Assembly: GCA_015231405.1 (NCBI GenBank)
Contig: JADGBR010000009.1
Coordinates: 25,423 to 89,422 of the forward strand
DNA: 64,000 bases
DNA from: Candidatus Omnitrophota bacterium
GTDB taxonomy: Bacteria > Omnitrophota > Gorgyraeia > Tantalellales > Tantalellaceae
Direction: 5' to 3'
Shown here: positions 21,201 to 64,000 of the stretch, piece after piece
How positions within the stretch are numbered: position 1 is the first letter of the stretch
Layout: every line of letters begins with the position of its first letter
The notes under the pieces: model-generated
Told to the model about the DNA's origin: nothing
What the model saw: only the letters and a program-made list of their open reading frames with translations
Databases searched by the model: none
Program-made: the position numbers and the translations under genes

Positions 21201-23538
21201 TGGCGTCTATTTCGACAACACCCCTCACGGAGTCTATGCTCATAACTTTCTGTTTGACCGTTCCATATTTGATCTCTAAGGCCTTACCGGCGAGGAACAT
21301 CTTTTCTTCCGCGCTTAATAGGCCCATCATATCCCCGACAACGGCGATCATTTTAGCGTCGAGCCCTGTTCCGGACAGCGAGATCCGTCCTCTGTCGTCG
21401 AACCGGCCGCTAAAAACACTTGTGCCGGCTCCCTTAGCCATTGCTACAGCGTTACCCTGGCCGGCCGCCCGCGCTTTTAATTGCCCGTGCCTTTCTTTTT
21501 CTTTAGTCGCCATTGTCCTGAATATATATTCGTTCCCCTCCTTATCCAAAGCTATTTCATCGGGCGAACCCTTGTCATCGTTCGATATCGTAGCGGTGCG
21601 GCCGAGCGCGAAAACACTTATGCCCCCGAGATAAGCTGCGAAAATCTCCGGAGTTACCCGGGCCATTGCACCTTCCTCGCTATAGGCACGTTCATAAGCG
21701 CGGGCCCACTCCGCCTTGGCCTCTTTTATATCCTTTCCTTCCAGCACCGCCGCGCCAAGCGCGCGGTATATCGCCCTATTAATTTTTGCGAATTCCCCGT
21801 CCCACTGGTCGAAGAACGCCGCTAGCGCCAGTTGATACTTTCCCGACTCAAGCACCTTCTCATAATCGCTTTTTTTCTTAGTCAATATCGCGATGTACGG
21901 CCTTTCCTTTCCGGGACCGTATTTGGGAACGACAACGAGATACGACAACCCGTTCTTTTTCATCAGCGACGTAAGCCCTTCCGAATGGAACCCGCCGCTT
22001 ACAAGCGCCGCTATCTTTTCACCTTTCGACCTCATTTCCTTCAAAGTGTTATTGAAGAGGACCTTGTTCCTCTTTTCGGCGTCGATGTAGAACTTCATCG
22101 CTGTCCCGAGAGCGCCGAATATTTCGGCGAGGTCATAACCCTGAACTATTCCCGCTCCAAGCTCCCGGCAATTCCTGTTTATATACTCCGCCCATTCTTC
22201 GGGCTTTAACCTTCCGAGTGAGGCGTTAATGCGCCTGAACTCGGGCTCGCTTATCTCCATCTCATACAGCTGCAAGAGGAGCCTCGCGAGCTCAAGCTTC
22301 TCGAACACCTCGCGTTCCCTGGCGCTCTTCATCAGCTTATCCCCGAGACCCGATTCAAGGCCGGCTATCTCGGAGTAAAGCCCCAGAAAATTAATCGATT
22401 CGTAAACGCCGATGTACTCGTTGAATTTCATCATATTCGCGTACCCGCAGAGCGAAATGCCCGACCTATTCGAGAGGTCGACGAGATAACCATGGAATTC
22501 GCTTTGCGCAATTTTTTTCTGTTTAAAAGCGACGGACTTAAGGACCAGCGTCTCGAGGTCCGTCCGCCCTATGGCCTTTGAAAGCGCATTGATAAGGGCC
22601 AGACGTTCGATATTCGCCTTTTCAAAATTTATTAGCTCTTCAAGCTCTACTGCCCTTATCAATTTTGATATCTGGACATACGGTGAAATGTCATATCCTG
22701 ACTTTTCGATGACGGGATATAACGCCTTCCAATACTCCTTGAAGCCCATATCTCCTTTTCTGTGAAGGAAGGCGGCATTATCGACCGTACTCATGTCAGC
22801 CGATAATATCCTTTCCCCGATCCCGGATATCTGCTCAACCAGTTTTTCCAGCTGAAAGCTCAATTTTGCCCTTTCCTCGACGACAGCACGGAAACTTTCC
22901 ACATTCTCCATATACAGCTCATTATCTTCGATGCCGTATAGAGCGATCTTCTTATCGCTGATTATCTGATAGAACTCGCAAGCGCTCATTAACCCTTCAT
23001 TCATGAGATGAGCGGCGGTCTCCTCTTTGATCTTCTCGTCCGGGAAAGTTCTCAGTATAGATGTATCGATATATCCCGTTGATCCCTCGATGGCGACCAG
23101 TGAAAGGTCATAATCCGTAACCAGCTTATCGACGAGAGCCGCTATTGAATACTGGGCCTCTATAGATGAATGAGCGTCCTGAATATTGACTATCGTCTCG
23201 CCGCCAGCATTAAGCGCCCTTTCCTTTATACTAGAGAGATCGTCAGGCAGGGATATGTCATATTTTTCGCGCCTGTCGATCTCTCCCGTCACTTTCGACC
23301 CTGATACTACCCACACGGGTTTACCATTCTCTGTCCAGCCGATCTCATTTTCAACGAATATTACCGATAAAATAATGGATACGATCTTAATAAATTTTTG
23401 ATTCCGGGCTTTCCATGTGCTGATAAGTATATTGTCGTTCTCCTCATCTCTACCTTCGATAGGTTTATCATGGAAGGGAATATTGATCTTTGAAAAAAAG
23501 ATCTTCAGAAGCCCTTTCTTTTCACAAATTGTTTTCAT
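1..23538 (-). CDS. Giant multidomain membrane protein (gene D). At least 7846 codons lie in the window and the 3' end lies beyond the window start
   Basis: The start is ATG at 23536-23538 on the minus strand. An AAGGAAG Shine-Dalgarno sits 7 nt upstream and an in-frame TGA lies at 23566-23568. The frame (codon first bases at coordinates divisible by 3) stays open down to position 1. The ORF track omits it, presumably because there is no stop in the window; only short antisense plus-strand ORFs cover this span. Hand translation was checked at more than 15 sites. Motifs recovered include [22 protein letters not shown] (start), [10 protein letters not shown] at 23190-23160, [13 protein letters not shown] at 22002-21961, [91 protein letters not shown] and [21 protein letters not shown] at 186-121. 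Confidence 0.85.
   Translation of the reverse strand, partial: [7846 protein letters not shown]
7900..9300 (-). repeat. Tandem ~160-aa protein repeats in D (motif YD(D/N)xxDPxxAY...[10 protein letters not shown]). The same repeat begins the visible part of C
   Basis: Translation of 8760-8701 gives [20 protein letters not shown] and of 8280-8221 gives [20 protein letters not shown]. C residues 7-35 read YDDLRAPSFAYVRIRDPLSRDTGKIFRVDV. Confidence 0.55.
10550..11400 (-). other. Domain in D: clan GH-A (GH5-like) glycoside hydrolase (beta/alpha)8-barrel-like domain
   Basis: [40 protein letters not shown] (11340-11221) matches the GH5 strand-1/2 signature GFNxVR(I/L)P. [11 protein letters not shown] was found in translation of 11160-11101 (about 11145-11113). 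[11 protein letters not shown] at 10968-10936 matches the GH5 acid/base region (L/F)ELxNEP. AIHHY and IAVWNWN follow downstream as expected for the family. Confidence 0.5.
12900..16000 (-). other. Long Lys/Glu/Ala/Arg-rich alpha-helical region in D, a predicted coiled coil of about 1000 aa
   Basis: Translation of 14220-14161 gives [20 protein letters not shown] and of 13620-13561 gives [20 protein letters not shown]. There is heptad-like charge periodicity and almost no Gly/Pro runs. Confidence 0.45.
16300..17850 (-). other. Polytopic transmembrane block in D, about 515 aa with roughly 10-12 hydrophobic helices, immediately after the SecA-like core
   Basis: Translation of 17160-17101 gives [20 protein letters not shown]. 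The surrounding translation is dominated by 18-25-residue hydrophobic stretches separated by short charged loops. Confidence 0.5.
17660..20060 (-). other. Domain in D: SecA-like preprotein-translocase ATPase core (NBF1, NBF2 and helical scaffold-like region)
   Basis: Direct translation gives Walker A PMGFGKT (19761-19741), [24 protein letters not shown] (19374-19300) and [40 protein letters not shown] (19020-18901). It also gives [24 protein letters not shown] (18480-18421) and an arginine-finger segment [12 protein letters not shown]. These match in order the SecA signatures [85 protein letters not shown] and RGRSGRQGDPG. Confidence 0.7.
21085..21099 (-). other. HEIGH (HExGH) zinc-metalloprotease-type motif in D, in a hydrophobic context
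   Basis: Direct translation of 21120-21061 gives [20 protein letters not shown]. The motif fits the HExGH of M50/S2P-type or M48-type intramembrane zinc proteases. A carries HELAEH (not canonical) at a roughly comparable position. Confidence 0.3.
21979..23331 (-). other. Domain in D: conserved N-terminal domain shared with A and B. It is tentatively TIKI/TraB/GumN-like and follows a signal-anchor helix
   Basis: D residues ~70-520. The stretch [45 protein letters not shown] is about 75% identical to A residues 86-130. The second His motif GGFHSEG (D) corresponds to GGYHADG (A) and GGFHTGG (B), matching the G-x-x-H-x-x-G pattern described for the TIKI/TraB/GumN superfamily. The family assignment is tentative. 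Confidence 0.45.
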
Positions 23539-23639
23539 ATGACACTTCCTTTTTATTACCTTTATTCATTAAATGTTTTAATAAGTTTTTAATTATTTTT
23601 AGCCTTAATTTTTCCTTATTATTGGAATTTATAAGGTCA

Positions 23640-23668
23640 TTATACTCCTTAGGCGATAAAAAAGTCAA
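23640..23668 (-). promoter_or_regulatory. Candidate sigma70-type promoter for gene D, TTGACT-17 bp-TATAAT
   Basis: On the minus strand the -35 TTGACT is the reverse complement of 23663-23668 and the -10 TATAAT is the reverse complement of 23640-23645, with a 17 bp spacer. The predicted start site near 23633 would give a ~95 nt 5' UTR to the ATG at 23538. The region 23539-23740 is strongly AT-rich. Confidence 0.4.
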
Positions 23669-23741
23669 AATAAATATTTCAACTTTTTTATTTTTTACTT
23701 CAACACGCCGATTATTAAAATACCTCAGTTCTTTTCTGAGT

Positions 23742-23769
23742 AGCGTCAAGAGACTAAGCCTGTCATTTT
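23742..23769. repeat. Left terminal inverted repeat (IR-L)
   Basis: gtcAAGAGACTAAGCCTGTCATTTTTCC. The core 25 nt are the perfect reverse complement of 25663-25687. Confidence 0.7.
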
Positions 23770-23845
23770 TCCCTGTGCTGCACGTCTGCACCGAGCGGGG
23801 TACGGACATCCTCTCCAAGCCTTCCCCCGGGAATTTCTTAACGCA

Positions 23846-24010
23846 TTTCACATGCCGTTTTTAGACCTTGCAAATTCACCCTCCTCCGTCTTCGGCTTCG
23901 GAGGGCGAGCTGCAAGCAAGGAGGTTGTCATAAAAACGGCATGCGAAATGCTAAAATTCCCGAAGGGGCCCCTTTGCTCTCCGAGGCTGTCCGCACCCCG
24001 TTTGATGCGT
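23846..24010. repeat. Nested-palindrome element, copy 1 (about 165 bp)
   Basis: A 13-bp perfect inner inverted repeat CATGCCGTTTTTA / TAAAAACGGCATG flanks a central hairpin CCCTCCGTCTTCGGCTTCGGAGGG, followed by TAAAATTCCCGAAGGGGCCCCTTTGC. The element is about 85% identical to the reverse complement of copy 2. Confidence 0.6.
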
Positions 24011-24065
24011 TTGAGAAGTTCGGTAAGGATCGCGTTAAGACCCTCTGGGATCCGCTATGTTCGTT

Positions 24066-25427
24066 TTACGAAGAGTCTACTATCCCCGCAAATGGATTAT
24101 CATTGCAAAGTAATATCGTTTTCAGCGTATCAAGTACATCCATCCCGTTCAGTTTGGCCGTCTGGATCACGCTCATAAGAACGCTATGGTATCTAGCTCC
24201 CTGTTCCGATCTGTTGCCGTATGTTATCTTTCTCCGGATAACTCCCGGCCTTATTTCCCGTTCCGCACGATTATTGTGAGATTCGATATCTTTCACGTAA
24301 AAAATGGTGAATATCTCGTTCTTGTGCCTCTCCAGCCTTTTAGCGATTCTATTTAATATTTTCTTATTCGGGTCAGGGAACCTGAAATCCTCAAGACTTT
24401 CTACGATCCGTTTTCGTCTCCTTATATACTCCTCATCCCATTCCTTATTTCGATGTTCGTCGTATAATTTAATACCATCCTTCAGTATCTTTACTAGCCG
24501 CCTGGCGTATCTTATAACCCCCTTATCCTCCCTGTCCCAGAATTCTAGTACCTTTGACAGGTCCCTTAATAAGTGTAATAAACACCGCTGCTTCTTCGCG
24601 GCTATCTTGTTATATGCCGATAAAAAGTCCGTTATCAATACCCCCGTCATAGTGGTCTCCAAGGATACTTTGAACGACCTTTTGCCCCCGGCTAAGGTCT
24701 ATGTGTATCACACTGACGAACCTGGTAACGAATTTCCATAACCACCCCGTCTTTCCGTTTATCTTCCAGCCCGTCTCATCACCGTTGTTAAACGGGCTTT
24801 TTCTTAATTCCGTCATCAGTAGGGAGTATATCCTTTCAGCCTTAGCAGCTGCTTGTCTCCTGAAATCCGTAATAGCCGAATGACATAGCTTAAGTCCAAA
24901 GATCTTATCAAATACTTTACGTATATCCCCGTCGGAGACTTTAACGTCATATTTCATGTATATGGCCAGAGCCTTGGCGATGGGTCCGATGCGACTGTTG
25001 TCCAGCTCGTCCTTACCCCGGCCGGTGACCGTATCCCGGCACACGGGACAATAGTATTTCTTCTTGTCAAACCTGGTCGTTATTATCCCGGGCATGATTA
25101 TGTCCTATGAGTGTGCTGGATGGTTCCCTGGCATTGTCGCAAGTCGCTTGAACCGCAGACCGGACATTCAGTTATCCGGACCTCTACGATCTTGTCTATT
25201 TTGTCTGGTGTTTGCCTGAACCAGCCGATGTGACCGAACAATCCGCCTATTTTAGACTTGGATCTTTTAGATGTTTTCTTCTTTGATTTGGATCTCGGTT
25301 TTTTCTTTCGGTTGAAGAAGTCCGATTTGAATTTATTAAGTTCGAATCGCAAGCAGACTATTTCACCGCGTAATTCCTTAACGGTCTTTTCATAGTCAGA
25401 GCAATCTTTACAACCGGTAATTTGCAT
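24066..25427 (-). pseudogene. IS66-family (single-ORF, ISBst12-like) transposase broken into three frames
   Basis: ORF 25427-25098 ends CPVCGSSDLRQCQGTIQHTHRT. Two bases later, in a different frame, ORF 25095-24610 begins MPGIITTRFDKKKYYCPVCRDTV, so the N-terminal zinc finger is split. That ORF contains DETGWKINGKTGWLW, matching the IS66 DETPxxVxGKxGYLW motif. ORF 24662-24066 overlaps in a third frame and contains HNNRAEREIRPGVIRRKITYGNRSEQGARYHSVLMSVIQTAKLNGMD, matching the IS66 DNNxAERxIRP...GRKNxLF...TAKxNGxDP motif. The two frameshifts indicate a pseudogene or a sequencing error. Confidence 0.65.
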
Positions 25428-25662
25428 AAAGTTTATTGACGATTTATGATATTGCGAGTTTTCATACTTGTTTTCGTGTGACGGGTAAGATTCGCGAGCG
25501 GACGGGGGCGGGCGAGCACTGCAGCAACTCGCCGCCGGAAGGATAACAATAATTTACACATCTCTGTGAATCAAACAACTGCAGTTTAAAAATAACAGGC
25601 GAATTGTGAAGCGCTCGAGAACGCATGCGGTCGATCGCGAATCTCGGTTGTCGGACGGTTAA

Positions 25663-25690
25663 GGAAAAATGACAGGCTTAGTCTCTTAGC
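25663..25690. repeat. Right terminal inverted repeat (IR-R)
   Basis: GGAAAAATGACAGGCTTAGTCTCTTagc. The core 25 nt are the perfect reverse complement of 23745-23769. Confidence 0.7.
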
Positions 25691-25835
25691 TAACGTCTGA
25701 AAATGTCTGAGGTGTTACTTATTCTTTGGATCTGTCTGCCAACTGTTGGTCGCGTGGCATGCTTAGGTATGCCATCGTAATATTACACGTACAAATATTT
25801 TGTAATAACTACTATAAGCGTGAGGTTACCGGGAT

Positions 25836-26060
25836 CGGACGGGGTGTGGACGCACTCTTCAAGCAAAGGGGCCCCTTAGGGAATTTTAGTCTTCCACATG
25901 CCGTTTTTATGACAACCACATTACTTGCGACTGAGCCCTCCGAAGCCGAAGGCGGAGGATGGGTGAATTCGCAAGGTCCAAAAACGGCATGTGGAAGGCG
26001 TTGTTAAATTCCCGTGGGGAATGCTTGAAGAGTGCGTCCGCACCCCGTCCGGCACCCCAT
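25836..26060. repeat. Nested-palindrome element, copy 2 (about 225 bp), inverted relative to copy 1 and carrying an extra outer stem
   Basis: The outer arms GACGGGGTGTGGACGCACTCTTCAAGC (25837-25863) and GCTTGAAGAGTGCGTCCGCACCCCGTCC (26023-26050) pair with 2 mismatches. The inner stem is CACATGCCGTTTTT / AAAAACGGCATGTGG and the core hairpin is CCCTCCGAAGCCGAAGGCGGAGG. Confidence 0.6.
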
Positions 26061-26150: not shown

Positions 26151-29100
26151 TCATGCGGAGATCAGAGCGCGCCTGTAACCTTCTATGGCTTCCCGAAGTT
26201 CCAAGTAGTCGATCTTAATGATCCTAGGAATGTATTTAAGAAGACCGCCCGCTATATTGAACCCGAAAAGCTTTTTATCTTTTAAATATGCCATGAATCT
26301 GTCGTTATCGAATTCGGAGTGTCCGATCGACGCCCAGTACGCGATAAAATTCAAAGCGGCGTCGTAGATCTCGCCGGTAGCGATGGCGGACGAATCATCT
26401 CCGTTCTTATACGCTATGACCCTTATATTTTCAGGAAGGGCATCTTCGGAACACATGGCGTCCGGGTCGAATACCGTTATGTATGTTTCAGCCGGAAATA
26501 GCTCTACGGCTATTGCAGCGGCAGTTCTGGCCTTAGCCTCATCAATTGTTAAAAGCTCTATATTCTCCTCTTTCAGATATTTTATTCCCATTTCCTTGAG
26601 GAGCTTCGCCTTCCCGGTTCTCCGCGATACCCGAACGAGCTGTTCTTCCCCGGCAGTTACCGGAGCGAGAACTATCCTGATATCATGTTTCGCTCCTCTT
26701 TTTCTATATGCCTCGGCTATCATTTTCAACTCTCCGAAGGTCCTTACTTTAACCATCAAAGCGTCCTTTCTTCCATCGGCCGTTTTTATCTCCCCGGCCA
26801 TATAATTTACGGCGTCTTTTGTAAGCGAATCCTGCGGCGTCGAGTCCGAACTTATTTCAGAGAAATTCATATTGTAAAGCCCGAGATCGTTAATGAGCGG
26901 CATTATTACCGGAAGGAACATCTTTTCCATTATTGAACTGACGCCCGCATATACTTCTTTGTATTTACCCAGCCGAAGGCTCGTGAACGGGGCGGTTCCA
27001 CCGTCTTTACCCCGCATTAGGGCGTCTAACGCCTCGCTTTTATCCAGGACTTCCATCCGCGCCTCATGTGTTTCCAACTGAGAGACGATCGCCTTTACCT
27101 GTTCGGACACTCCTCCCTTTACGCCGCTGAGCGCCTCAGCCTTGACTATGCCTGTCAAAGCTATTCCTCTGGCTTCGGCGATCTTCGAGATCGTATCGAT
27201 ATTCTTACTCGCGTCAAACGCATTCTGCGTCTCCGGAAGAACAATGAATACGAACTCATCCCTTGGGAACTTTGCCAGCTCCGCGTCTATATCGGCTTCC
27301 TCGAACCCCTGGAATTCCTCTATGCCTATCACGAACCTTTCCCTGACCGGTTTTATATCACCGATCTTTCCCGTTTCGGCCGCAAACCTGGCGTTAGCGA
27401 TGAACCTGGCCCATTGCCTCACGCTGAAAAAAGGATGTTCTCCGCCGGGAGTAAGAGCCGCGGCGAGCTTTTCGGGAAAGCCCGCTATCCTGGCGTCCCC
27501 GGCCGTAGCCTCCTCATCCTCCTCAATAAAGAAAATTATTTTTTCGCCGTCTTCCAGGTCAAGCTTGTTCCAGTTCGAAACAATTCCCGCATTACCTATA
27601 AATGTTTTTGACTTGATCCCTACCCTGATGAACAGCTTAGTATCGCCTTTACAATACCCGGCGCATAAATTTGCCAATGCCCTGCAATTACTTATGTCCC
27701 CGAAATCCAGTTTATTGCTCAACACGAACTTATACGAGATCTTTTTCATACCCAGGACCATATATGGCTTGATCTCATCAAGCAGCGCCCCGGCTCTTTC
27801 ACCCTCGGTCAGGATGAGCATTTCCCTGGATAAGCCCGTATTAATTTCCGAAACGCCGCCTTTATCGTATTTTTTTCCGTCATTTATGATCGCGAACCTC
27901 ACATCCGGATACTTTGGCAATATTTCCTCGACCGCTGCCGCAATATCCTTCCAATCGATCCCTTGGGGAGTAACGATCTTATCTGTCCCGGCTCCAACGG
28001 TAAAACCGTGTATGACCCTGATATCGCTTGCCTGTATCGTGGCTTCGGCGATAGGCGCGCCTTTTTCGCCGTAGACTCTCGGCTGATCCTCACCCTTCAC
28101 CCTGACCTCGAACGCCCTGGCATCGGTAGGTTCCGCCCCGGGATGTTCGCCAAGATACCCGTCATCAAGAACGCCGGCCAAAAAATCTATGAATTTCTCG
28201 ACGTCCGTCTTTGCGCCTTTGACATCAAACCCGACTTTACTGCCGCATTCCATGGCGTATTCCAATAGAACGAGCATGCTGTCGCATTCCATCGAAAGAC
28301 TAGTTCCGTCCTTTAATATCCCGTTCACTTTCATTTTTAATTTCAGCTCCATCAGCTTCCTTATTATAAGATCGCTCACTCGCATGTGCACTCCGTTAGG
28401 GGTCACTACCAAAAGTTCCAGCGGCACTTCGACCTCTCGTTCGTCACGGATCTCGGGCATTATAGGGCCAGCCGTCTCTTTCATCCCGCTGGCTTTGGCC
28501 GGGGAAGGCTCTTCCGCCCGAACATCCTCTACGGGTCTTCCCTCCAGTTTTCTTGAAACATTAGTCATGGATTCGGCCATCAGCCTGTTAAATTCGGGAG
28601 ATCCTCTCATCCTATCGAACCGCACACGGACTTTTTCAAGGATCTTCGCCTCTATTTCTTTATCGGGGATCCCCTCCCATCCTTTAAGAAGCTCAAAAAC
28701 ATTTTCGGCGCTGGTGAACCCTATGTTGGTCTTGACCTTAGTGATAAGTTCCGGGAGCACGCCCTGAAAGAGCGGTATCCCGTATTTCTTAAGGAAATAC
28801 ATGCTGAAAAAGAGCGTTTTGTCCAGTCTCGCGTAATCCCCGCATATCGAAACGGAAACGCCGTTTTCGGAAGCGGCCGCCATGACCTGATCGATCTTCT
28901 CCAACACGGTTTTATTGAAATCGGCGTCAGAAATATCCGTCCTGGGCTTACCGGAAACGGCGGAGGTCAGATCGTTAGATCCTACGCTAAGGAATTTCAG
29001 ACGTTTTCCTTCACCAAGGTCAAAAGTTAATATGTCACGTATGTCAGCCGCAGCTTCAAGCGTTTCTACCATTATACCTATCGCAAGCCCATCTATCCTG

Positions 29101-32100
29101 GCGACGTCGAGATCGCTGATCTTATCAAGGAGCTCCCTCCGGCATTCGGCGAGAACGCTCTTTATGAACTCCATATCTTTTATGGTCTTGACCATCGGGA
29201 ACATCATCCTTATGTTCCCGTATCGGGAACGGACATTAGCCGTCATTATAGCTTTGACCTGGTTCTTAAGCGCCCACCGGCCCGGCTCCGTCCGGTAATA
29301 ATCAAAACTGTTTATCTCTCTTCCCTCATCATCTTTTACGGAAGGGAGAGCGGAACAGATCTTGTCATTCTCCCTGTCGAAAGTCCTTAATGTCACGGGT
29401 TTATCCGCGACGTCGGCAATGGACCTGAAAAGCTCAGACATACTGGCTATACCGGGTTCGACTCCCTTGACGCCGTACATATATTCCGTCCGCCCGAGAG
29501 CGATGCCCGAAGCGCCGTACCGTTCGTACATCTCGCGGACAGCTCTCACCGCTTCTTCCTTGTTCCCGTAAAGGTTTATGTTGCCGTAAACCTTGACGTC
29601 GGCTCCGTCCATTGTTTTCGCCGAATCATCCGCTTTGCGTGAGGCCGCTTCCATCGACGCATAGAAACCCGACATGACCCTTCCTTCCATGTAATCCTGG
29701 AATATCTCCGTCGTGGGCTCCCCTAAATGGACCTTGGCGACGTCGGTCTCGCTGCCCGTGACTTCCTTGTAAATTATCGAGACCTTCTCGCCCATTCTTA
29801 TTTTTTCGTCGAAAAATATCTCGGGTATACCCAGGACGAGAAGAGCTCCCATACCTGTGGCGATTATGGCCACATGCTCGGTCGTGGAACCGTGGGAACT
29901 CACGTAAAATTTTACCCCGTATTTCTCTGTGAGCGCCCTTAAAAGCAGGTCGTCCCTTATGAGCGTCCTTGTCATAACCACCGGCGGACGGGATAAAGCT
30001 TCCGCTTTCTTCATCTCGGCCTCTACTTCGCCCAGAACAACGTCCTCGAGGTCCATCTCCTCCAGAAGAAGGTCGATTATTCCGCTTATTATCGCTTTGA
30101 TCGCAAGCGCTTTGAACATGAGCTCTTCCGAATGCAGTTGCGCTACGGCGTCGACCGAAAAATTCATCTCATACCACAGGCGCAAAGCGAACCGCGCGGT
30201 ATAGCCCTTATCTCTCATAATATCCGAAACTCCGGCAAAAACTATCTCCGCGTGTTTTATCGTTCCGGGGCCTAACGCTTCCAGCTTATCACCATTTTTA
30301 GCCCTTTCGAAACAGGAAGATAATTTAGCCTGTTCCAGCTCCTTTTCGCGTTCCCCGGCAATGTATCCGCGGTCCAAAGTCCGTACCAAGTTAACCATAA
30401 GGTTATTGGTGCTGTCGCCGTTGTCGACCCCGAGCCGGTTATTCCTGTACAAACGGTAGACTTTCGAGAAAACCTGGCGGGCGGCGCTGGGCTTTGGCGT
30501 CCCTTCTTCCTTGAGATCCACCTCCCGATAAATTTCCATGAGAGCGCCGTACATCCCCTGGGCTATGCTCCTTTCTCTTTCATCATGGGCCATATCCATT
30601 GCTTTGTCATAATATTTGATCCTTGAACCCAGGACGCTTTGAAGATGCATCCTTTCCTTGTCAAGATCGTCCTCGGGCACCACGGCCTTGCCGGTAAGTT
30701 CGTTCTCTTCTATCGTTTCCCTGCCAACGTCAAGGACCACGGCATACCCGTCGAGAATAGCTCCCGGGATACCGTTAGAACGGCATATTACGGCTCCATC
30801 CATCAGAGCGCGGTATTTGCGGATCGTTCCGGCATATGCCTCTCTTTCTTTTTCCAAAGAACCCACTATCTCAAACACGCCTTCGGAAGCCGTTGGGCCC
30901 GTTTTCCTGTATGAATCATAGAGTCCGGATAATTGTTCGTCGCTAAGCTCCTCTTTTTCCGATAATGATCTCTGGAACTGGAACAAAGAAAGGAATATTT
31001 CGGCCTGGTTCCCGCTTTCTAGCGGCCTCGCGGGATAAATATGATGGTACATGCCTCTTGTCTCGATCAAAGGCAGGATACCTGATGATGATATCCTGTC
31101 GCTTATGGCTCTAAAATCTCCGGCCCTGTCGGTCGTCGAGATCATTATCTGCGTCATTGGCCCGGCCCCTTCGAGCCCCTTTTCGACGTCAGAGGGTATG
31201 TACCTCCTTCTGTCGTTCAAGACCACAAAATACTTTTTCACGCCTTCCGAAGCGGCCTTCTCAGACATCCGGTAAGCCGTCCAGAGGTCGAATATCTCAT
31301 CGTAGAGATAGTCCGCGTGCCTGACTATGTGGTAAGGTACGAACATCCTCTCCATAACGGCCCTGGCGAACTCGAACGGTATGGGTTCGGCCGCTTTAAG
31401 CTCCTCGGGCAGGTCGGACAAACTCTTTAGCGAATTTATCAGGTCAGCTTCTTTTGATATCCGATCAAGGACGGCTCCCGAGGCGCCCTCATAAAGTCCC
31501 GCCGGAACCACGGGCGCGCCTGTCTTTTGAGGTTGCCGCTGGGGAGTGACTTCCTCCCGCACAAACTCCTTTGGTATACCCACAAAGAGATTTATCGCGG
31601 GCAATAATACCAGCATCCCCAGAAAATGAGCTATGCCCGCTCTCACACCGGGATCGGACGGAATATTCAGGCGCTTCATGAGTTTAAGAGCCCTGTGCTC
31701 GGCGAGCTCGTGACTGAGGATATTTCGCCGTACCCATTGTTTATTTATCAGCCAGAAAGCCGCGTGCGGCCTTTGTACGCCTTTTAGAGTCACGCCTGCG
31801 AGATGAACGCCCTTAAGCCCCTCTTTCTCTTCTGATGTAAGATAAGATCTCCCCTCGGAGGCCTCTATCTCCGAGAGTTTCCAGCGGGTAAGCGCTCTGT
31901 AAGCCTCCCCTTTTATCAGGTAAAATCGGATGGAAGCGTATCCCGCGTAAAACCCGGCTCCCATTATAGCGGCTGAGCACCAGGTTAAACCATGTGCGGC
32001 CGCCATATTGCTCAACCCGAAATAAACAAGCGCCCAGGCCGTAACCAGGCTAATACCGTACCACCTGACGCCGGAAATGACGCGGAACGAGTGAGCCGGC

Positions 32101-34625
32101 TCACCCGGAATGTCCCCACCAGTAGCGGATGTCTTAATGACCGGTACGGGCACGGCTTCCGGAACGGCGGACGGCGCTGCCACATAGACAGCTTGTCTGG
32201 CTGCTATTTCCCCGTAAGCGCTCCTTACCCTCACGAAAAACGCGTTTAAACGTTCCGCTATAGTATCGCCGTTCGATCCTTGTAAAGTTCCATAGAGCGC
32301 CGCGTAATCGTAGGGTATCTTTATTCCCTTGATGTCCCTGATCAGCCCGATGATATTCCGGTCGGAAGGCTCGGCCTTATCGTGATAGATCTTTTCGGCC
32401 ATCTGCTTTACCACAGCATCGTTGTCAGCCAGTCCGTCAAGAACCGGCTCAAGTTCCATACCGGCAACTACGGAACGCTGTATGAGAGCGCGTATCTCAG
32501 GCATGGCATGGCCTTCATCCGTCACGCCATCTAAAGTCCTTAACGCTTCTGCGAAATCATCCGGAGTTCCGGGCTTAGACGGTTCCATGGGCACTTTCAT
32601 TCTGGCGTTAAAAGCCCTTCTCTCGGCCGGGGAAGTTATCCTGAACTCATATTTAAGAGGCTGACCGTTCTTAACGGCCTCCCGCACTATGGTAACGAAA
32701 GTCACGACCGGAGAATTACCGTCATATATCACCGCGCATCCGCTGACCTTTCTGACGGTGATATTGTCGATGAACCGCCCGAAGGTTTCCGCAGCGATAA
32801 CCGGCCTTCCGGGCCCGGCAGAATGAGCGTCATAGTGAACGGCATAATCGGCTTTCCATTTTGCCTTTAACGACACGGTATCAGCTCCGCGAAGCGATGC
32901 TTCACCGAGAGAATAGAAAACAACGGGCCTTACGATATCAAAAGCATACTCGGGATCTTTAGACAGTCTTTCGGGGGTCAGTTCGTCAAAAAAGCCTTTT
33001 AATGCCAGCTGATACCTGCCGGCATCAAGCACTTTTTCGTACCGGCTCTTTTTATTAGTGAGCACCGCGATATACGGTCTTTCATTCCCTTCCGCGTATT
33101 TAGGTATAACTATGAGATACGATAAGCCTTTCTTACGCATGAGCTCGGAGAGACCGTCGGCGTGATATCCACCGGTAATAAGGGCAGCGACGTTCCTTCC
33201 CTCCTCCCTCATCCTCTTTACCGTGTTATCGATGATAGACCTGTTCCTTATCTCCGCGTCAAGATAGAACCGCATCGCCGGGTCTATCCCGCTCTCGATC
33301 GCGTTAAGATCGTACGCTCCGGCTGCCGGCACGCCGTATTTGGCGCTCCACTTCCTTAAAAGACGCGCCCATTTGCCCGCTCCAAAGTCCCTCCTCCTCT
33401 CTTCTATCGCCTGGAACTCTCCGCTTGAAAGCTCCATGGAATACAGCTGCTTTAACATCCTGACGTCGTTCATCATCGAGTATAGCTCGCGCTCGTCAGA
33501 GTTCCTGTAAAGTCCTTCCATGACCCTTGACTCGGCGAGCGCCGCGTCACGGTAAAGCCCGGCCACATTGATAGAGTTGTATATCGAGACATATCTCGTG
33601 TATTTTATGAGATCGCCGAACCCTTCGCTATCTATCCCGTTCGATCCCGCGAGTTTTAGCAGATATCCGTGGAACTCCGCCTCGGCTATGCGCCTATTCT
33701 TAAACGATACTGATCTAGAGACGAGCTCTTCAAGCGACCTTTTATCCAGTACTCCGGCAAGGCTGTCTATGAGCCTTTTCCGCTGGGCGTTCGCGAGTGA
33801 AAAATCTATGGAATCCTCAAGCGTGACGGATTCCACCAGTTTATCAAGCTCCTTGTATTCCCCGATATCCACGCCGGACCGCCTGAGCATAGGCCCGGTT
33901 TTTCGCCAATAGCCCTTAAAGCTTTTTTCGCCCGAACGGTGCGCTATGCAGTTCGCGTGAAATTCCCTGAGTTCCTCCGACGAACACTTAGCCTCGAACG
34001 CTTCCAGCTGAGCTAGAAGCGAATCGATATTAGAGCGTTCCTCCGACATCATGCCGGCGAGTTTTCCGAAACTCTCAACGTTCTTCGCGTATAGATCCTC
34101 ATCCTCTATACCGTATAGCGCTATATCCTTAGAGGAAGTCACGTCGAAGAACTCTCCGGCGCTCATCCTGCCTTCACTCATAAAATGACCTGCCGTATCC
34201 CGCCTTATATCCTTATCCGGAAATGTTTTCAAAACGGAAGTATCGATATACCCGGTAGAACCCTCTACCGCCACCAGAGACAATTCGTAATCATTGGCCA
34301 GCGAATCGAGAAGTTCAGCTATGGAATACTGCGCGGATAGCGACGAATGGGCGTCCTGGATATTGACTATGAGCTCTTTTCCGCCGGTCGAATTCACTTC
34401 GCTTACACCCGCTAGGTCGTAAGGGATCGCAATATTTCCCCGTTCAGGATTATCCCCCGGAAAGGTTGTCCTTTGTATTTCGGCATATTCCCACGATGAC
34501 GAGACATCGGCCGTAAAGCCGCTTTCCTGCCAGAAGAAAACGAAGGCAACGAGAAGTGCAATCGTTCGGATAAATAACGGATAAGAGCTGTTCTCTTTCT
34601 TACCGCGTGAGAAGTTTTTTGACAT
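26151..34625 (-). CDS. Giant multidomain membrane protein (gene A), 2824 aa. Domains are the N-terminal conserved domain, a PTS Enzyme-I-like phosphoHis domain, a PEP-utilizing TIM barrel, an HPr-like domain and the shared C-terminal domain
   Basis: Complete ORF from the track, ATG at 34623-34625 and TGA at 26151-26153. Hydrophobic signal-anchor at residues 20-32, further helices at 857-905 and 996-1018. It shares N- and C-terminal domains with B, C and D. Confidence 0.9.
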   Translation of the reverse strand: MSKNFSRGKKENSSYPLFIRTIALLVAFVFFWQESGFTADVSSSWEYAEIQRTTFPGDNPERGNIAIPYDLAGVSEVNSTGGKELIVNIQDAHSSLSAQYSIAELLDSLANDYELSLVAVEGSTGYIDTSVLKTFPDKDIRRDTAGHFMSEGRMSAGEFFDVTSSKDIALYGIEDEDLYAKNVESFGKLAGMMSEERSNIDSLLAQLEAFEAKCSSEELREFHANCIAHRSGEKSFKGYWRKTGPMLRRSGVDIGEYKELDKLVESVTLEDSIDFSLANAQRKRLIDSLAGVLDKRSLEELVSRSVSFKNRRIAEAEFHGYLLKLAGSNGIDSEGFGDLIKYTRYVSIYNSINVAGLYRDAALAESRVMEGLYRNSDERELYSMMNDVRMLKQLYSMELSSGEFQAIEERRRDFGAGKWARLLRKWSAKYGVPAAGAYDLNAIESGIDPAMRFYLDAEIRNRSIIDNTVKRMREEGRNVAALITGGYHADGLSELMRKKGLSYLIVIPKYAEGNERPYIAVLTNKKSRYEKVLDAGRYQLALKGFFDELTPERLSKDPEYAFDIVRPVVFYSLGEASLRGADTVSLKAKWKADYAVHYDAHSAGPGRPVIAAETFGRFIDNITVRKVSGCAVIYDGNSPVVTFVTIVREAVKNGQPLKYEFRITSPAERRAFNARMKVPMEPSKPGTPDDFAEALRTLDGVTDEGHAMPEIRALIQRSVVAGMELEPVLDGLADNDAVVKQMAEKIYHDKAEPSDRNIIGLIRDIKGIKIPYDYAALYGTLQGSNGDTIAERLNAFFVRVRSAYGEIAARQAVYVAAPSAVPEAVPVPVIKTSATGGDIPGEPAHSFRVISGVRWYGISLVTAWALVYFGLSNMAAAHGLTWCSAAIMGAGFYAGYASIRFYLIKGEAYRALTRWKLSEIEASEGRSYLTSEEKEGLKGVHLAGVTLKGVQRPHAAFWLINKQWVRRNILSHELAEHRALKLMKRLNIPSDPGVRAGIAHFLGMLVLLPAINLFVGIPKEFVREEVTPQRQPQKTGAPVVPAGLYEGASGAVLDRISKEADLINSLKSLSDLPEELKAAEPIPFEFARAVMERMFVPYHIVRHADYLYDEIFDLWTAYRMSEKAASEGVKKYFVVLNDRRRYIPSDVEKGLEGAGPMTQIMISTTDRAGDFRAISDRISSSGILPLIETRGMYHHIYPARPLESGNQAEIFLSLFQFQRSLSEKEELSDEQLSGLYDSYRKTGPTASEGVFEIVGSLEKEREAYAGTIRKYRALMDGAVICRSNGIPGAILDGYAVVLDVGRETIEENELTGKAVVPEDDLDKERMHLQSVLGSRIKYYDKAMDMAHDERERSIAQGMYGALMEIYREVDLKEEGTPKPSAARQVFSKVYRLYRNNRLGVDNGDSTNNLMVNLVRTLDRGYIAGEREKELEQAKLSSCFERAKNGDKLEALGPGTIKHAEIVFAGVSDIMRDKGYTARFALRLWYEMNFSVDAVAQLHSEELMFKALAIKAIISGIIDLLLEEMDLEDVVLGEVEAEMKKAEALSRPPVVMTRTLIRDDLLLRALTEKYGVKFYVSSHGSTTEHVAIIATGMGALLVLGIPEIFFDEKIRMGEKVSIIYKEVTGSETDVAKVHLGEPTTEIFQDYMEGRVMSGFYASMEAASRKADDSAKTMDGADVKVYGNINLYGNKEEAVRAVREMYERYGASGIALGRTEYMYGVKGVEPGIASMSELFRSIADVADKPVTLRTFDRENDKICSALPSVKDDEGREINSFDYYRTEPGRWALKNQVKAIMTANVRSRYGNIRMMFPMVKTIKDMEFIKSVLAECRRELLDKISDLDVARIDGLAIGIMVETLEAAADIRDILTFDLGEGKRLKFLSVGSNDLTSAVSGKPRTDISDADFNKTVLEKIDQVMAAASENGVSVSICGDYARLDKTLFFSMYFLKKYGIPLFQGVLPELITKVKTNIGFTSAENVFELLKGWEGIPDKEIEAKILEKVRVRFDRMRGSPEFNRLMAESMTNVSRKLEGRPVEDVRAEEPSPAKASGMKETAGPIMPEIRDEREVEVPLELLVVTPNGVHMRVSDLIIRKLMELKLKMKVNGILKDGTSLSMECDSMLVLLEYAMECGSKVGFDVKGAKTDVEKFIDFLAGVLDDGYLGEHPGAEPTDARAFEVRVKGEDQPRVYGEKGAPIAEATIQASDIRVIHGFTVGAGTDKIVTPQGIDWKDIAAAVEEILPKYPDVRFAIINDGKKYDKGGVSEINTGLSREMLILTEGERAGALLDEIKPYMVLGMKKISYKFVLSNKLDFGDISNCRALANLCAGYCKGDTKLFIRVGIKSKTFIGNAGIVSNWNKLDLEDGEKIIFFIEEDEEATAGDARIAGFPEKLAAALTPGGEHPFFSVRQWARFIANARFAAETGKIGDIKPVRERFVIGIEEFQGFEEADIDAELAKFPRDEFVFIVLPETQNAFDASKNIDTISKIAEARGIALTGIVKAEALSGVKGGVSEQVKAIVSQLETHEARMEVLDKSEALDALMRGKDGGTAPFTSLRLGKYKEVYAGVSSIMEKMFLPVIMPLINDLGLYNMNFSEISSDSTPQDSLTKDAVNYMAGEIKTADGRKDALMVKVRTFGELKMIAEAYRKRGAKHDIRIVLAPVTAGEEQLVRVSRRTGKAKLLKEMGIKYLKEENIELLTIDEAKARTAAAIAVELFPAETYITVFDPDAMCSEDALPENIRVIAYKNGDDSSAIATGEIYDAALNFIAYWASIGHSEFDNDRFMAYLKDKKLFGFNIAGGLLKYIPRIIKIDYLELREAIEGYRRALISA
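26154..26918 (-). other. Domain in A: shared C-terminal domain
   Basis: KMFLPVIMPLINDLGLYNMNFSEI ... ending YLELREAIEGYRRALISA. It is homologous to the C-termini of B (ELESRRQALWSA), C (NEFKRYQEILTRA) and D. Confidence 0.6.
28146..28418 (-). other. Domain in A: HPr-like phosphocarrier domain
   Basis: VVTPNGVHMRVSDLIIRKLMELKLKMKVNGILKDGTSLSMECDSMLVLLEYAMECGSKVGFDVKGAKTDVEKFIDFLAGVL aligns with HPr (APNGLHTRPAAQFVKEA ... SNGKSASAKSLFKLQTLGL ... EGEDEQKAVEHLVKLMAEL), including the active-site His. Confidence 0.55.
28776..29528 (-). other. Domain in A: PEP-utilizing enzyme C-terminal TIM-barrel domain (Enzyme-I-like)
   Basis: IALGRTEYMYG matches RTEFLFM. VTLRTFDRENDK matches IRTLDIGGDK. YGNIRMMFPMVKTIKDMEF matches GNLRIMFPMI. 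IGIMVETLEAAADIRD...FLSVGSNDLTSAV matches IGIMVETPAA...FSIGTNDLTQY. Confidence 0.7.
29751..29903 (-). other. Domain in A: PEP-utilizing enzyme mobile (phospho-histidine) domain
   Basis: SSHGSTTEHVAIIATGMGALLVLGIPEI (residues 1576-1603) matches the GGRTSHAAIIARELGIPAVVG signature of PTS Enzyme I, PPDK and PEP synthase, including the catalytic His. Confidence 0.6.
33096..34373 (-). other. Domain in A: conserved N-terminal domain (tentatively TIKI/TraB/GumN-like)
   Basis: IVNIQDAHSSLSAQYSIAELLDSLANDYELSLVAVEGSTGYIDTS at residues 86-130 and ALITGGYHADGLSELMRKKGLSYLIVIPKY at residues 482-510 are closely similar to D and recognisably similar to B. Confidence 0.45.
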
Positions 34626-34697: not shown

Positions 34698-37600
34698 TTA
34701 CGCTGACCATAGAGCCTGACGTCGGCTCTCAAGTTCCGCCCGGGCGTCAACCGGCATAGCCGGCATGTTCATGAGCAGTCCCTTTATGAAATTGACCACG
34801 GCCTGTATCGACCGTTGGTCCGCGGGAAGAAGGTTGGTATCCTTGACCTCGTCGAAGCTCATCATAAAATATATATCGGACGGGGACACCCTTCTGCCGG
34901 TGAACTGCGTGAACAACACTTCCAATTGGTCCAGGTCTTTTTTATCCACTTGTTTATCGACAACCCGTACCGCCGAGAGGACCGATCCGGCGGCCAGCAT
35001 CTCAAGATTGTAATACATACCGTTATCCTTGAGGCCTGACACATCGGGCAATGCCGGGAGTTTGACGGCTTTTGAAAGGATCGCGCTTTCAACGCCGGTT
35101 TCGGTATCAGCGTTCTCATAATTTGCCACTGTTCCGAGTAAAACCTGGCGCGCGTCAGCCCTTAAAGAGCCGGCCCTGATCTCCGAGAAACCGACTTCCG
35201 AGTTGAACGTGATTATTCTGGCATCTATCCCAAGTTTCGTCCTGAGTACCTGCTCCAGCTCCCTTTTCTCATCGCCCGTGAAGGCTTCTTTGGGCATTAT
35301 ATAATCTATCTTTTCACCGTTGAGTTTAGCCGAGTAGGCCTTGGCTGTCTGGAACGCCTTAACTATGGTTTTTTCAGGACCCATAGGGATATGCCCGGTA
35401 TATACCCTGGTATCCTCGTCGGCTGACACGAGAGTATATTCCCCTAAACCCGCTGATACCATTTTTCTATCTCCGGATTTCAGGGTAATGATATTCCCAT
35501 CCCCGTCCCTGAGAAGTTTTCCCGTACGGTCCACTATTCTGATCGCTCCTTTCTCAACGGAAAGGATATGGTCAGAACGACTCGCCAACGCGTCAACTTT
35601 CACTGACCCGCCCATAGTCATTGTATACCCGGTCCTCATAAAATTGTCGCCGATCCCGATGATCTCGACCTTCGCGTCCCGCGCGTCAGAAGTGATAAGC
35701 GGCACCGGTGCCGCTTCAAGGGTTTCCACAGTGCGATCGCCCGCGGCGAGCTCACCGGAGGCGTCAATATCCAGAAGATACTTAGTTCCGTCGAGCGCCT
35801 CACCGCTATCGTCAGCCATGACCGCCTGGGGGAAAACCTCTCCCGGAGTTAATTCGCCCTCGCCGGGCATAGCCGCGTCATCGCCGAAGCGCGCCGCGTC
35901 CTGTACGGGAAGTCCGGCCAGGCGTGACCAGTTCTTAGCGACAATACCGCTAAGCCCTTTCGGGTCACCGACTTCAGGCCCTGGGTGGCTATCGCTAAAA
36001 ACGGAAATAGTCCCGTCGCTCATGATACCGAACCCTAATTCTTTGAACTGGTTAAGCTGCAAAAGCGCCCTTATGAGGGGAGGTGCCAGATATCTGCCCT
36101 TTGACGACATCTTCGGGTCCTCGACGTCGAGACCGACGGCTGAAACCCTGTCGCCCGTCCTCTCCCTGACACCTGCCCTGTCGGCCGGTATATAGTGCGA
36201 TTCATAAGCGGTGTAAAGAGAAGGCTCCCTTAAAAGCACGTACGTCATGTAATCCGCTACCATCTCCCAATCGGGTTCCGGTGATCCCTTCTCAGCCTGC
36301 AGATCCGCCCTGTGCTGCACCGACATGAACCTGTAAAGGTCTTCCATCATTGTCGCGGCGGTCGTTCCCGGAGGATCGTTCTCGAAAAGGGCGTTGTGGA
36401 TATAGATCATTAGAGCTACCTTATTATCCCTGATGGCGGCCCCTATCTCCGGTGTTATTATCGCCGAACCGATATTCGATACCAGCGTCGTTGGGAACAT
36501 AAGAAGAAGCCTGGAGTTCCTTATCGCCATTTCCGCGAGCGGATTAGAGGCTACTTTTTCGCTCGGCACAAGGACTTTTATCACTCCCTGGATGTCGCCT
36601 TCGTTTATTGCTTTTCTCAACGCCTCTTTTTGAGCCGCGTCAAGTACCGGGCGTTCCCTTATGACCGTCTTCTGGAACGGCCCCACCTTGGAGATCTCAT
36701 TGAAAGCGTCTTCGGATGGAAGGAACTGTATCCTTGTCGTGGGAACACCGTTTTCGTCTGTCTGGTAAGCCAGACCCGCGAGATGATATCTCCTTAACGT
36801 CACCGGATGTACCCGTCCCTGAACGTCAAGGAAAGTCTCCATTTCCCTTATGGTAAGATACCACGCGATATCGGCGCTGGTAGATCCCGCCTCGATCAGT
36901 ATCGATATTTCACCGTCTATCGCCGCCCTTTCCTCCGTCGAGAGAAAACCGTCCGGGTGGTCAGGAGCGGGTTTCGAAAGAGTAAGGAGCGCCGAACTTG
37001 GCACTGTCCCGCCAGGAAGCGCGTCTATCGCTTCATTGAAACATATCTGTGCGCCCACAAGGGTCATACTCCTCAAAGGCATGTCATATTTCGGGATCTC
37101 CACATTGGCGCAGAACTCCGCGTAAAGAAGGTCCCTAACTATCTGATCTTTCCCGTCCCTGATCAATTGATTGAGGACATGCTCGAGTTTTTCCTCAAGC
37201 GCGAGCACCCTCTCCTCGGGGTCGAGTTTAAGATCGCATAAAAGATGTCCCTGGTTTCGGGTAGGGTTCAGCATCTCCCAGAGCGTATTATCGGTAAGGC
37301 CGATTATGGCGCCCTCGGCGTCCCTCTTCGTCATTTCCGGGTGGGACTTCGCGAAATAAGCGAGTATATTTCCGACGAACGCCCCCCACACCTTTTCAGG
37401 TTCAGCCTTGGTCTTATCCTGTAATATACATTCCCTAAGTTCCGTAAGCGTATGTACCAATATCTCCTTGGCTTCGGCTACGGCCATACCGCCTCTCCTC
37501 ATATCATCCAGACGGCGATTGAACGCGGCTACATAGCCGTTAATAGCTTTAACCTTGGGAGCGTTCTTCGGCGAGACCTGCCCATACTGGGCCATGCGTA

Positions 37601-63980: not shown

Positions 63981-64000
63981 CGTGAAATTGTCCTCGCCAA

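Follow-up and report, generated by a model that had tools for sequence, protein, structure and literature searches.

A candidate Enzyme I-type phosphotransfer cassette with a tethered HPr-like domain in a giant protein of Candidatus Omnitrophota

The giant reading frames and the Enzyme I-type module of ORF A

The 64,000-nucleotide stretch of contig JADGBR010000009.1 investigated here (Candidatus Omnitrophota bacterium, assembly GCA_015231405.1; hereafter the window) is occupied by four very long open reading frames (ORFs), all of them on the minus strand and 2,824 to at least 7,855 aa in length (Table 1). ORF A, for which no exact-protein match is on record, contains the element in question, one mobile cassette (aa ~1041-2154) that comprises a conserved domain here called X, a complete yet divergent Enzyme I (EI) of the phosphoenolpyruvate (PEP)-dependent phosphotransferase system (PTS) and a tethered HPr-type domain. 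An initial annotation, made from the sequence alone, had proposed a three-part chain of phosphohistidine domain, PEP-binding barrel and HPr-like domain at 28146-29903, corresponding to aa 1575-2160. This order is confirmed on the minus strand of ORF A and all of the quoted motifs are found there, but the unit had been drawn too narrowly, as its conserved part begins near aa 1041 (window 31505).

Table 1. Positions of the reading frames, and of the domains, hydrophobic segments and motifs of ORF A
Feature	Window position	Strand	Residues	Remarks
ORF A	26151-34625	-	2,824 aa	stop codon included in coordinates; host of the cassette
ORF B	34698-46808	-	4,036 aa	
ORF C	46971-63998	-	at least 5,675 aa	N-terminus beyond window
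ORF D	1-23565	-	at least 7,855 aa	C-terminus beyond window
N-terminal hydrophobic anchor	34521..34589	-	aa 13-35	Kyte-Doolittle; preceded by basic KNFSRGKK
Hydrophobic segments	31575..32081	-	aa 849-903 (probably a hairpin) and aa 997-1017	hydropathy; just upstream of cassette
Domain X	30801..31505	-	aa 1041-1275 (~230 aa)	upstream of EI part; conserved, no family match
EIN-like domain	29712..30800	-	aa 1276-1638	beta-hairpin, expanded helical subdomain, alpha/beta swivel
Beta-hairpin with CRSNGIPGA			aa 1279-1297	AlphaFold2 model
All-helical subdomain, expanded			aa ~1318-1543	AlphaFold2 model
Alpha/beta swivel subdomain			aa 1548-1634	AlphaFold2 model; His1584 at helix start; followed by linker helix, then barrel
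TTEH			aa 1581-1584	
His1584 codon	29874..29876	-	aa 1584	predicted phospho-acceptor, equivalent of EI His189; aligned with EI active-site His in 2hro
EIC-like PEP-binding TIM barrel and C-terminal helices	28545..29636	-	aa 1664-2027	ten EI catalytic-type residues kept
GRTEY			aa 1711-1715	
NIRMMFPM			aa 1804-1811	
IMVET			aa 1851-1855	
GSNDL			aa 1882-1886	
Linker, charged and Pro-rich	28437..28544	-	aa 2028-2063 (~35 aa)	pLDDT <50 in both models
Divergent HPr-like domain	28164..28436	-	aa 2064-2154	His2080 and Arg2082 in GVHMR; Ser2116 ~ HPr Ser46
PNGVHMR			aa 2076-2082	

The barrel is recognised by PF02896 with 108 bits (E 5e-31), above the Pfam cut-off, and the His domain by PF00391 with 14.9-19.7 bits, below the cut-off of 23.1. 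Hits to PEP synthase or pyruvate phosphate dikinase (PPDK) only, the outcome which the initial annotation had taken as speaking against its proposal, were not what we obtained: TIGR01417, the model of PTS Enzyme I, scores 112.6 bits as compared to ~38-41 bits for the PEP synthase and PPDK models, and in a phmmer search of the PDB, Enzyme I is found at 1.8e-18 and PPDK at 0.007. Profiles, PDB sequence search and fold searches alike place EI first. Since EI outscores both related families in this way, we assign the His domain and the barrel, on the grounds of their sequence, to the PTS Enzyme I type and not to PPDK or PEP synthase. No match to ATP-grasp or PF01326 was found in Pfam scans of ORF A, which included the region upstream of the His domain.

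The residues expected to carry out catalysis are retained. His1584 is shared by all of 19 aligned sequences, canonical EIs included, and is placed at the start of a helix by both AlphaFold2 models, the first of which was built from a 10-sequence alignment (mean predicted local distance difference test, pLDDT, 63; poor at the N-terminus and in the HPr part) and has been replaced by a second one from the 19-sequence alignment (mean pLDDT 81, predicted template modelling score 0.68). In the barrel, R1712, E1714, R1747, D1750, K1755, E1854, N1884, D1885, R1895 and C1928 are invariant in 12 members of the clade described below and in seven canonical EIs. Eight of these, R1712, R1747, K1755, E1854, N1884, D1885, R1895 and C1928, we take to be the counterparts of R296, R332, K340, E431, N454, D455, R465 and C502 in the E. 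coli enzyme.

The canonical N-terminal domain of EI (EIN), which binds HPr, had initially been described as absent. This turned out to be wrong: EIN is there, together with its helical subdomain. When clade residues 1271-1639 were aligned with 60 canonical EI N-termini using hhalign, a probability of 98.2% (E 3.3e-13) was obtained and canonical residues 1-242, which take in the helical HPr-binding subdomain, were covered. The best Foldseek match of the model is the phosphorylated full-length EI 2hwg (E 2.3e-22, target-normalised template modelling score 0.67, ~737 columns), and the isolated EIN 1zym appears as a separate match (E 5e-5). PF05524, the family of the helical HPr-binding subdomain, has no match in ORF A; this subdomain comprises ~225 aa as compared to ~110 aa in the usual EI, and the family model is blind to it because of this roughly doubled length and its strong divergence.

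The HPr-like domain and domain X

The presence of an HPr-like domain with a His in PNGVHMR, as initially annotated, is supported, and its His and Arg signature is kept. Aligned by hhalign with a seven-sequence HPr profile built without ORF A, the domain gave E 1.8e-5 and a probability of 78% over HPr positions 7-83, pairing His2080, Arg2082 and Ser2116 with His15, Arg17 and Ser46 of HPr; a hidden Markov model (HMM) of other HPr sequences, again with ORF A left out, scored it at 15.4 bits, both of these custom profiles including five canonical HPr/NPr sequences. A profile of the four HPr-like domains found after the cassette matches HPr in the PDB at 5.6e-10, and the ORF A domain alone matched no HPr structure there in phmmer. 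Two relatives, P0010 (52 bits) and P0011 (51 bits), carry an HPr domain above the Pfam cut-off at the same position, and with P0018 and ORF A this amounts to four of the 12 clade members with an HPr-like domain right after the cassette, always containing G[ILV]HxR. The Gly, the His, the Arg and the equivalent of Ser46 are invariant across the four copies, and in the AlphaFold2 model, His2080 is the first residue (N-cap) of the first helix, as in HPr. Judging from sequence and position, aa 2064-2154 are probably homologous to HPr, and it is plausible that the domain acts as a phosphocarrier. Tandem repeats of HPr were also considered and rejected: aa 2161-2290 and 2291-2400 reach 0.3% and 1.6% against the HPr profile in hhalign and have no Pfam match. 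The ~270 residues after the HPr-like domain (aa 2161-2420) match no family, and a word-index search found no relatives of aa 2030-2420.

Domain X is conserved in all nine relatives whose sequences extend that far. The motifs of the family, LP…VP.EF…C…MF…H…LY.EIF.LW and TQI..A..DR.G, are represented in ORF A by EIFDLW (aa 1110-1115) and TQIMISTTDR (aa 1158-1167). In the model, mostly at a pLDDT of 80-94, five helices and an extra strand precede a beta-alpha-beta-beta-alpha-beta unit, and the order of secondary structure elements together with motif resemblance would suggest a ferredoxin/ACT-like fold. Pfam, NCBIfam, a PDB profile search and a profile search of 5.8 billion proteins gave no match to the domain; serpin matches at E ~0.01 were rejected as noise. 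GAF was not matched in aa 1040-1269, nor was a P-loop or ATP-grasp in domain X. By analogy with the GAF domain of PtsP, whose position it takes, domain X may possibly be an input sensor. Matches of small domains such as X or HPr are hidden in fold searches with the whole model, since matches of the TIM barrel fill the lists.

The cassette in other giant proteins and its genomic setting

Comparing ORF A with its relatives by BLAST, we observed a common unit with limits at about aa 1045 and 2025. When 1.84 billion representative sequences were scanned in full with HMMER, 11 matches reached E <=1e-30, all of them in proteins of 987-7,326 aa; below these, the scores fall at once from 285 bits to the level of ordinary EIs of ~575 aa, which begin at 100 bits. 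In a neighbour-joining tree of His domain and barrel (144 sequences, 404 columns), the 12 copies from giant proteins form an exclusive clade; the 132 other sequences are the best-scoring matches of a search in which 4,278 proteins were found. Identity amounts to 36-64% inside the clade and to 19-32% with canonical EI. The four HPr-bearing members branch basally in this rough distance tree, which suggests that the fusion of EI and HPr is ancestral and was later lost. Where HPr-less members continue beyond the barrel, hydrophobic helices come after the cassette in most of them. A genome scan located the cassette at three loci, in two metagenome-assembled genomes (MAGs) of Candidatus Omnitrophota and in one labelled Planctomycetia. 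Of two scans of metagenome contigs, one yielded nothing and the other only canonical EI genes of ~25% identity, because its patterns were generic EI motifs.

The proteins hosting or neighbouring the cassette contain phosphoglucomutase/phosphomannomutase (PGM/PMM), phosphoribosyl pyrophosphate (PRPP) synthetase, a domain of the glucosamine-6-phosphate isomerase/6-phosphogluconolactonase family and methyltransferases, as well as uridine kinase, cytidylate kinase, guanylate kinase and nucleoside diphosphate kinase (NDK). Kinases of nucleotide metabolism recur, as in the relative P0013 (4,741 aa) with uridine kinase/phosphoribulokinase, NDK and cytidylate kinase, and the giant adjoining the cassette at locus L001 carries PRPP synthetase. 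At L002 (contig JAPLMF010000027 of a Candidatus Omnitrophota MAG), a 584-aa GAF-GAF-HD protein (3033-4784, plus strand; PF13487, HD_5) lies directly downstream of the cassette protein and is followed by a large PGM/PMM protein, echoing the PGM/PMM of ORF B. Outside the cassette, aa 357-672 of ORF A (window 32610-33557) match aa 6-314 of P0010 (316 aa, 41.6% identity, E 3e-70) without belonging to any family. P0010 (5,098 aa) holds two copies of the EI-like module, and this, together with the N-terminal match, points to shuffling of cassettes among the giants.

HExxH-like motifs were observed near transmembrane helices flanking the cassette: SHELAEH in ORF A (aa ~966-972, window ~31700-31740) and, just after the cassettes of relatives, LHEMTHL in P0013 and IHELAHV in P0014, P0019 likewise having such a motif. 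These hint at a membrane-proximal metalloprotease-like element, which might process the polyprotein.

The architecture of the window matches the multi-enzyme giant proteins known for Omnitrophota (bioRxiv 10.1101/2023.11.21.568195; 10.64898/2026.06.07.730766), its ORFs likewise being very long, with transmembrane segments and, here and there, domains of metabolic type (PGM/PMM, SecA-like, methyltransferase, kinases). Pfam domains in ORFs B, C and D are indeed only scattered: ORF B contains phosphoglucomutase/phosphomannomutase I-III and a sub-threshold CofD-like match, ORF C a guanylate kinase (aa 2307-2441) and a methyltransferase. A SecA-like block consisting of DEAD-like, preprotein cross-linking and P-loop domains was noted in ORF D (aa ~1251-1720, window ~18400-19810, minus strand); among long proteins of Omnitrophota, a SecA-DEAD architecture cluster of 20 proteins has been described (10.64898/2026.06.07.730766). 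In ORF C (aa ~800-2600, window ~56200-61600) and ORF D (aa ~5840-7620, window ~700-6040), almost identical hydrophobic segments follow one another in a long collinear series, IFTALSFAVTFFYFLAFVG being an example that occurs in both, and the two ORFs hence hold paralogous blocks with multiple transmembrane segments. The C-terminal ends of the giant ORFs are also alike, with YRRALISA* in A (window 26154-26240), RRQALWSA* in B (34701-34740) and YQEILTRA* in C (46974-47020). The relative P0001 ends in AIAVIRTAA*, and both it and ORF A have (Y/F)(I/L)PR.I.IDY about 20 aa earlier; this similarity could represent a common C-terminal signal or an assembly helix. Between ORFs D and A, in a gap of lower GC content (22000-26000), two adjoining ORFs of 198 and 161 aa (24066-25095, minus strand) are fragments of an IS66-family DDE transposase. 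No tRNA genes were found in the window.

Phosphotransfer, competing explanations and significance

By analogy with known PTS proteins, we consider it probable that the cassette is a PEP-driven phosphorelay of the EI-plus-HPr type, in which the phosphoryl group would pass from PEP to His1584 and from there to His2080. The barrel, probably dimeric, would bind Mg-PEP and phosphorylate His1584 on the swivelling alpha/beta subdomain; the swivel would bring the phosphate to a docking site on the helical subdomain of EIN, where the HPr-like domain would be docked in cis or across the dimer, and the phosphoryl group would then move to His2080 and further to some acceptor other than an identifiable EIIA or sugar permease. 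The data demonstrate the homology, the order of the domains, the presence of residues aligning with the catalytic ones of EI and the repeated occurrence of the cassette, from which its activity, the transfer towards His2080, the topology, the acceptor and the role of domain X are inferred.

A number of observations weigh against this reading. Eight of the 12 clade members have no fused HPr, which is thus not essential to the cassette. The EI scores are far below the cut-offs of the equivalog models (112.6 versus 341.7 bits for TIGR01417, 75.8 versus 824 for PRK11177), so that the module is an EI homologue but not a PtsI orthologue that could be annotated as such. The HPr-like domain of ORF A reaches 17.6 bits with PF00381 in the whole protein and 22.9 bits (E 8.8e-5) when excised, the cut-off being 23.0, and only 16.4 of the required 47.9 bits with TIGR01003; the usual RPA after the His is replaced, the sequence reading HMRV. 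Its model, at a pLDDT of 50-74, has a strand where helix B of HPr should be, the order being beta-alpha-beta-beta-(beta)-beta-alpha instead of beta-alpha-beta-beta-alpha-beta-alpha, and no HPr chain is among the best 50 Foldseek matches of the whole model (to E ~4e-3). The families EIIA, EIIB, EIIC and HprK were not found in the 64-kb window (ORFs A-D and small ORFs), nor were canonical ptsI, ptsH, EII or hprK genes. Finally, the hydropathy of ORF A leaves its topology ambiguous, and part of the multi-enzyme giants of Omnitrophota has been placed outside the membrane (10.1101/2023.11.21.568195; 10.64898/2026.06.07.730766), where no PEP would be available to the cassette.

Alternatively, the cassette could be a PPDK- or PEP-synthase-like enzyme interconverting pyruvate and PEP with the use of a nucleotide. 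Nucleotides would then be bound by a new part formed from domain X and the helical region, and the task of the module would be to regenerate nucleoside triphosphates for the nucleotide kinases of neighbouring giants. PF02896 and PF00391 are common to EI, PPDK and PEP synthase, 'pyruvate-diphosphate kinase domains' have been reported from such giants by West-Roberts et al. (10.1101/2023.11.21.568195), nucleotide kinases co-occur with the cassette, domain X is conserved without an assigned function, and most of the clade manages without HPr. The profile and PDB scores given above are, however, clearly in favour of EI, neither ATP-grasp nor PF01326 is matched, the stretch preceding the His shows homology to EIN, the model of domain X consists of helices and a small beta-alpha-beta unit and the domain matches neither P-loop nor ATP-grasp families, and a fused HPr would make sense only for EI; we therefore regard an enzyme of this kind as quite unlikely. 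A different explanation accepts an active EI and sees in the HPr-like domain of ORF A a decayed remnant, a structural or regulatory appendage, the phosphoryl group going to a free HPr or NPr encoded elsewhere. This would fit with the ORF A copy being the second weakest of the four (22.9 bits as compared to 51-52 in P0010 and P0011), with its failure to find an HPr in the PDB by phmmer, with the low confidence of the model and with the loss of the domain in two thirds of the clade. Yet the four signature residues have been kept in every copy, the HPr alignment covers the whole domain and the first modelled helix is N-capped by the His just as in HPr, and such decay appears unlikely to us.

The remaining alternative, that the cassette is an inert scaffold (a pseudoenzyme) kept for architecture, or that it is extracellular and without PEP, its role being unrelated to phosphotransfer, draws on the published topology predictions that put part of the multi-enzyme content of the giants on the outer face, on the ambiguous hydropathy and on the scores far under the equivalog cut-offs. 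The initial description of ORF A as a membrane-anchored giant holds as far as Kyte-Doolittle hydropathy goes. In a four-pass reading with the N-terminus inside, aa 1018-2824 would lie inside as well, and an even number of further transmembrane passes after an inside N-terminus would leave the cassette cytoplasmic; the basic loop of aa 904-996, however, argues against four passes and makes the topology ambiguous. A cassette that depends on PEP would have to be cytoplasmic, and a compartment with access to PEP is consistent with the neighbouring and related giants acting on phosphorylated intracellular metabolites. Against an inert or external cassette stand the phosphohistidine and all aligned catalytic residues (Mg/PEP-binding, proton-donor Cys), which are invariant in spite of an overall identity of 19-32% to canonical EI and thus indicate selection on catalysis. 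We hold this alternative to be highly improbable, and the relay from PEP via His1584 to His2080 remains our preferred reading.

Among known systems, PtsI (TIGR01417; 2hwg, 2wqd, 2kx9) provides the best sequence and structure matches. The cassette shares with it the swivel with phosphohistidine, the inserted helical subdomain, the C-terminal PEP-binding TIM barrel and all aligned catalytic residues, but differs in its low identity, in its His signature (GSxx[EQD]H as opposed to GGRTSH), in its helical subdomain of twice the length, in the extra conserved N-terminal domain of ~230 aa and in its location inside membrane-anchored proteins of 1,000-7,300 aa, EI usually being a soluble protein of ~575 aa. 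PPDK and PEP synthase also combine a swivelling phosphohistidine domain with a PEP/pyruvate TIM barrel, but the cassette has no ATP-grasp domain, and their profile and structure scores are clearly below those of EI. PtsP (EI-Ntr), an EI paralogue, has a sensor domain added at its N-terminus and together with an HPr paralogue forms a regulatory relay moving no sugar. The cassette resembles it in being an EI with an additional N-terminal domain and an HPr-type partner; the N-terminus of PtsP is a GAF domain, however, whereas domain X is modelled with helices and a ferredoxin/ACT-like unit and has no GAF match, no PtsN (EIIA-Ntr) was found, and the clade stands apart from all of the other tree sequences.

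Multiphosphoryl transfer proteins (MTPs) such as FruB (Pseudomonas, Rhodobacter), PtsA and FryA of E. coli, and DhaM carry EI and HPr on one polypeptide, usually with EIIA (PMC2405797), which means that a phosphoryl group can pass between tethered domains. Unlike MTPs, which usually have an EIIA and a PTS or dha operon, the cassette has its EI followed by HPr within a giant multi-domain membrane protein, and neither EIIA or EII nor any Dha component turned up in the window. The initial description of the arrangement as highly unusual was therefore overstated, given that EI-HPr fusions are well known (PMC2405797) and that PEP-utilising domains in giants of Omnitrophota ('Archaeovorins') had already been mentioned, labelled 'pyruvate-diphosphate kinase domains' (bioRxiv 10.1101/2023.11.21.568195). 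What does appear to be new is the identity as EI instead of PPDK, the separate clade, the enlarged EIN, domain X, a tethered HPr without EIIA and the giant host. The two papers on Omnitrophota giants, in those parts of their text and supplements that were accessible, do not name PTS, Enzyme I or HPr, and a literature search for Omnitrophota and 'phosphotransferase system' returned nothing relevant. We know of no published account of a PTS for this phylum.

As to the output, sugar transport is unlikely, since EIIA, EIIB, EIIC and HPr kinase are missing from the 64 kb and the stretch of ~270 aa that follows the HPr-like domain has no matches. Our best guess, much less certain than the core of the proposal and again based on analogy, is a regulatory (PTS-Ntr-like) or enzyme-directed (DhaM-like) relay on the cytoplasmic side. 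As initially suggested, the module may possibly supply energy to the remaining enzymatic cargo or regulate it. In a more far-reaching version, which we hold to be rather improbable, the cassette would be a PEP-fed phosphoryl hub in a membrane-tethered multi-enzyme assembly: domain X would sense a metabolite, EI would charge HPr (tethered, or free in the HPr-less members), and the phosphoryl group would go straight to enzyme domains of the giants, for example by priming the active-site Ser of phosphoglucomutase or by replacing ATP at kinase domains.

With the present data, a recurring module of Omnitrophota-type giant proteins, apparently labelled only 'pyruvate phosphate dikinase' so far, is renamed a PTS Enzyme I, to which HPr is fused in some cases. 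The module defines an EI clade of its own, highly divergent, in which the HPr-binding subdomain is enlarged and one more conserved domain is found at the N-terminus. A fragment of ~1,100 aa thereby offers a tractable handle on the function of giant proteins, by way of PEP-dependent phosphorylation and acceptor trapping. As PEP is intracellular, an active cassette would bear on the sidedness of the enzyme-rich parts of these proteins at the membrane, and if the hub were real, a relay derived from the PTS would drive or gate metabolism in cis.

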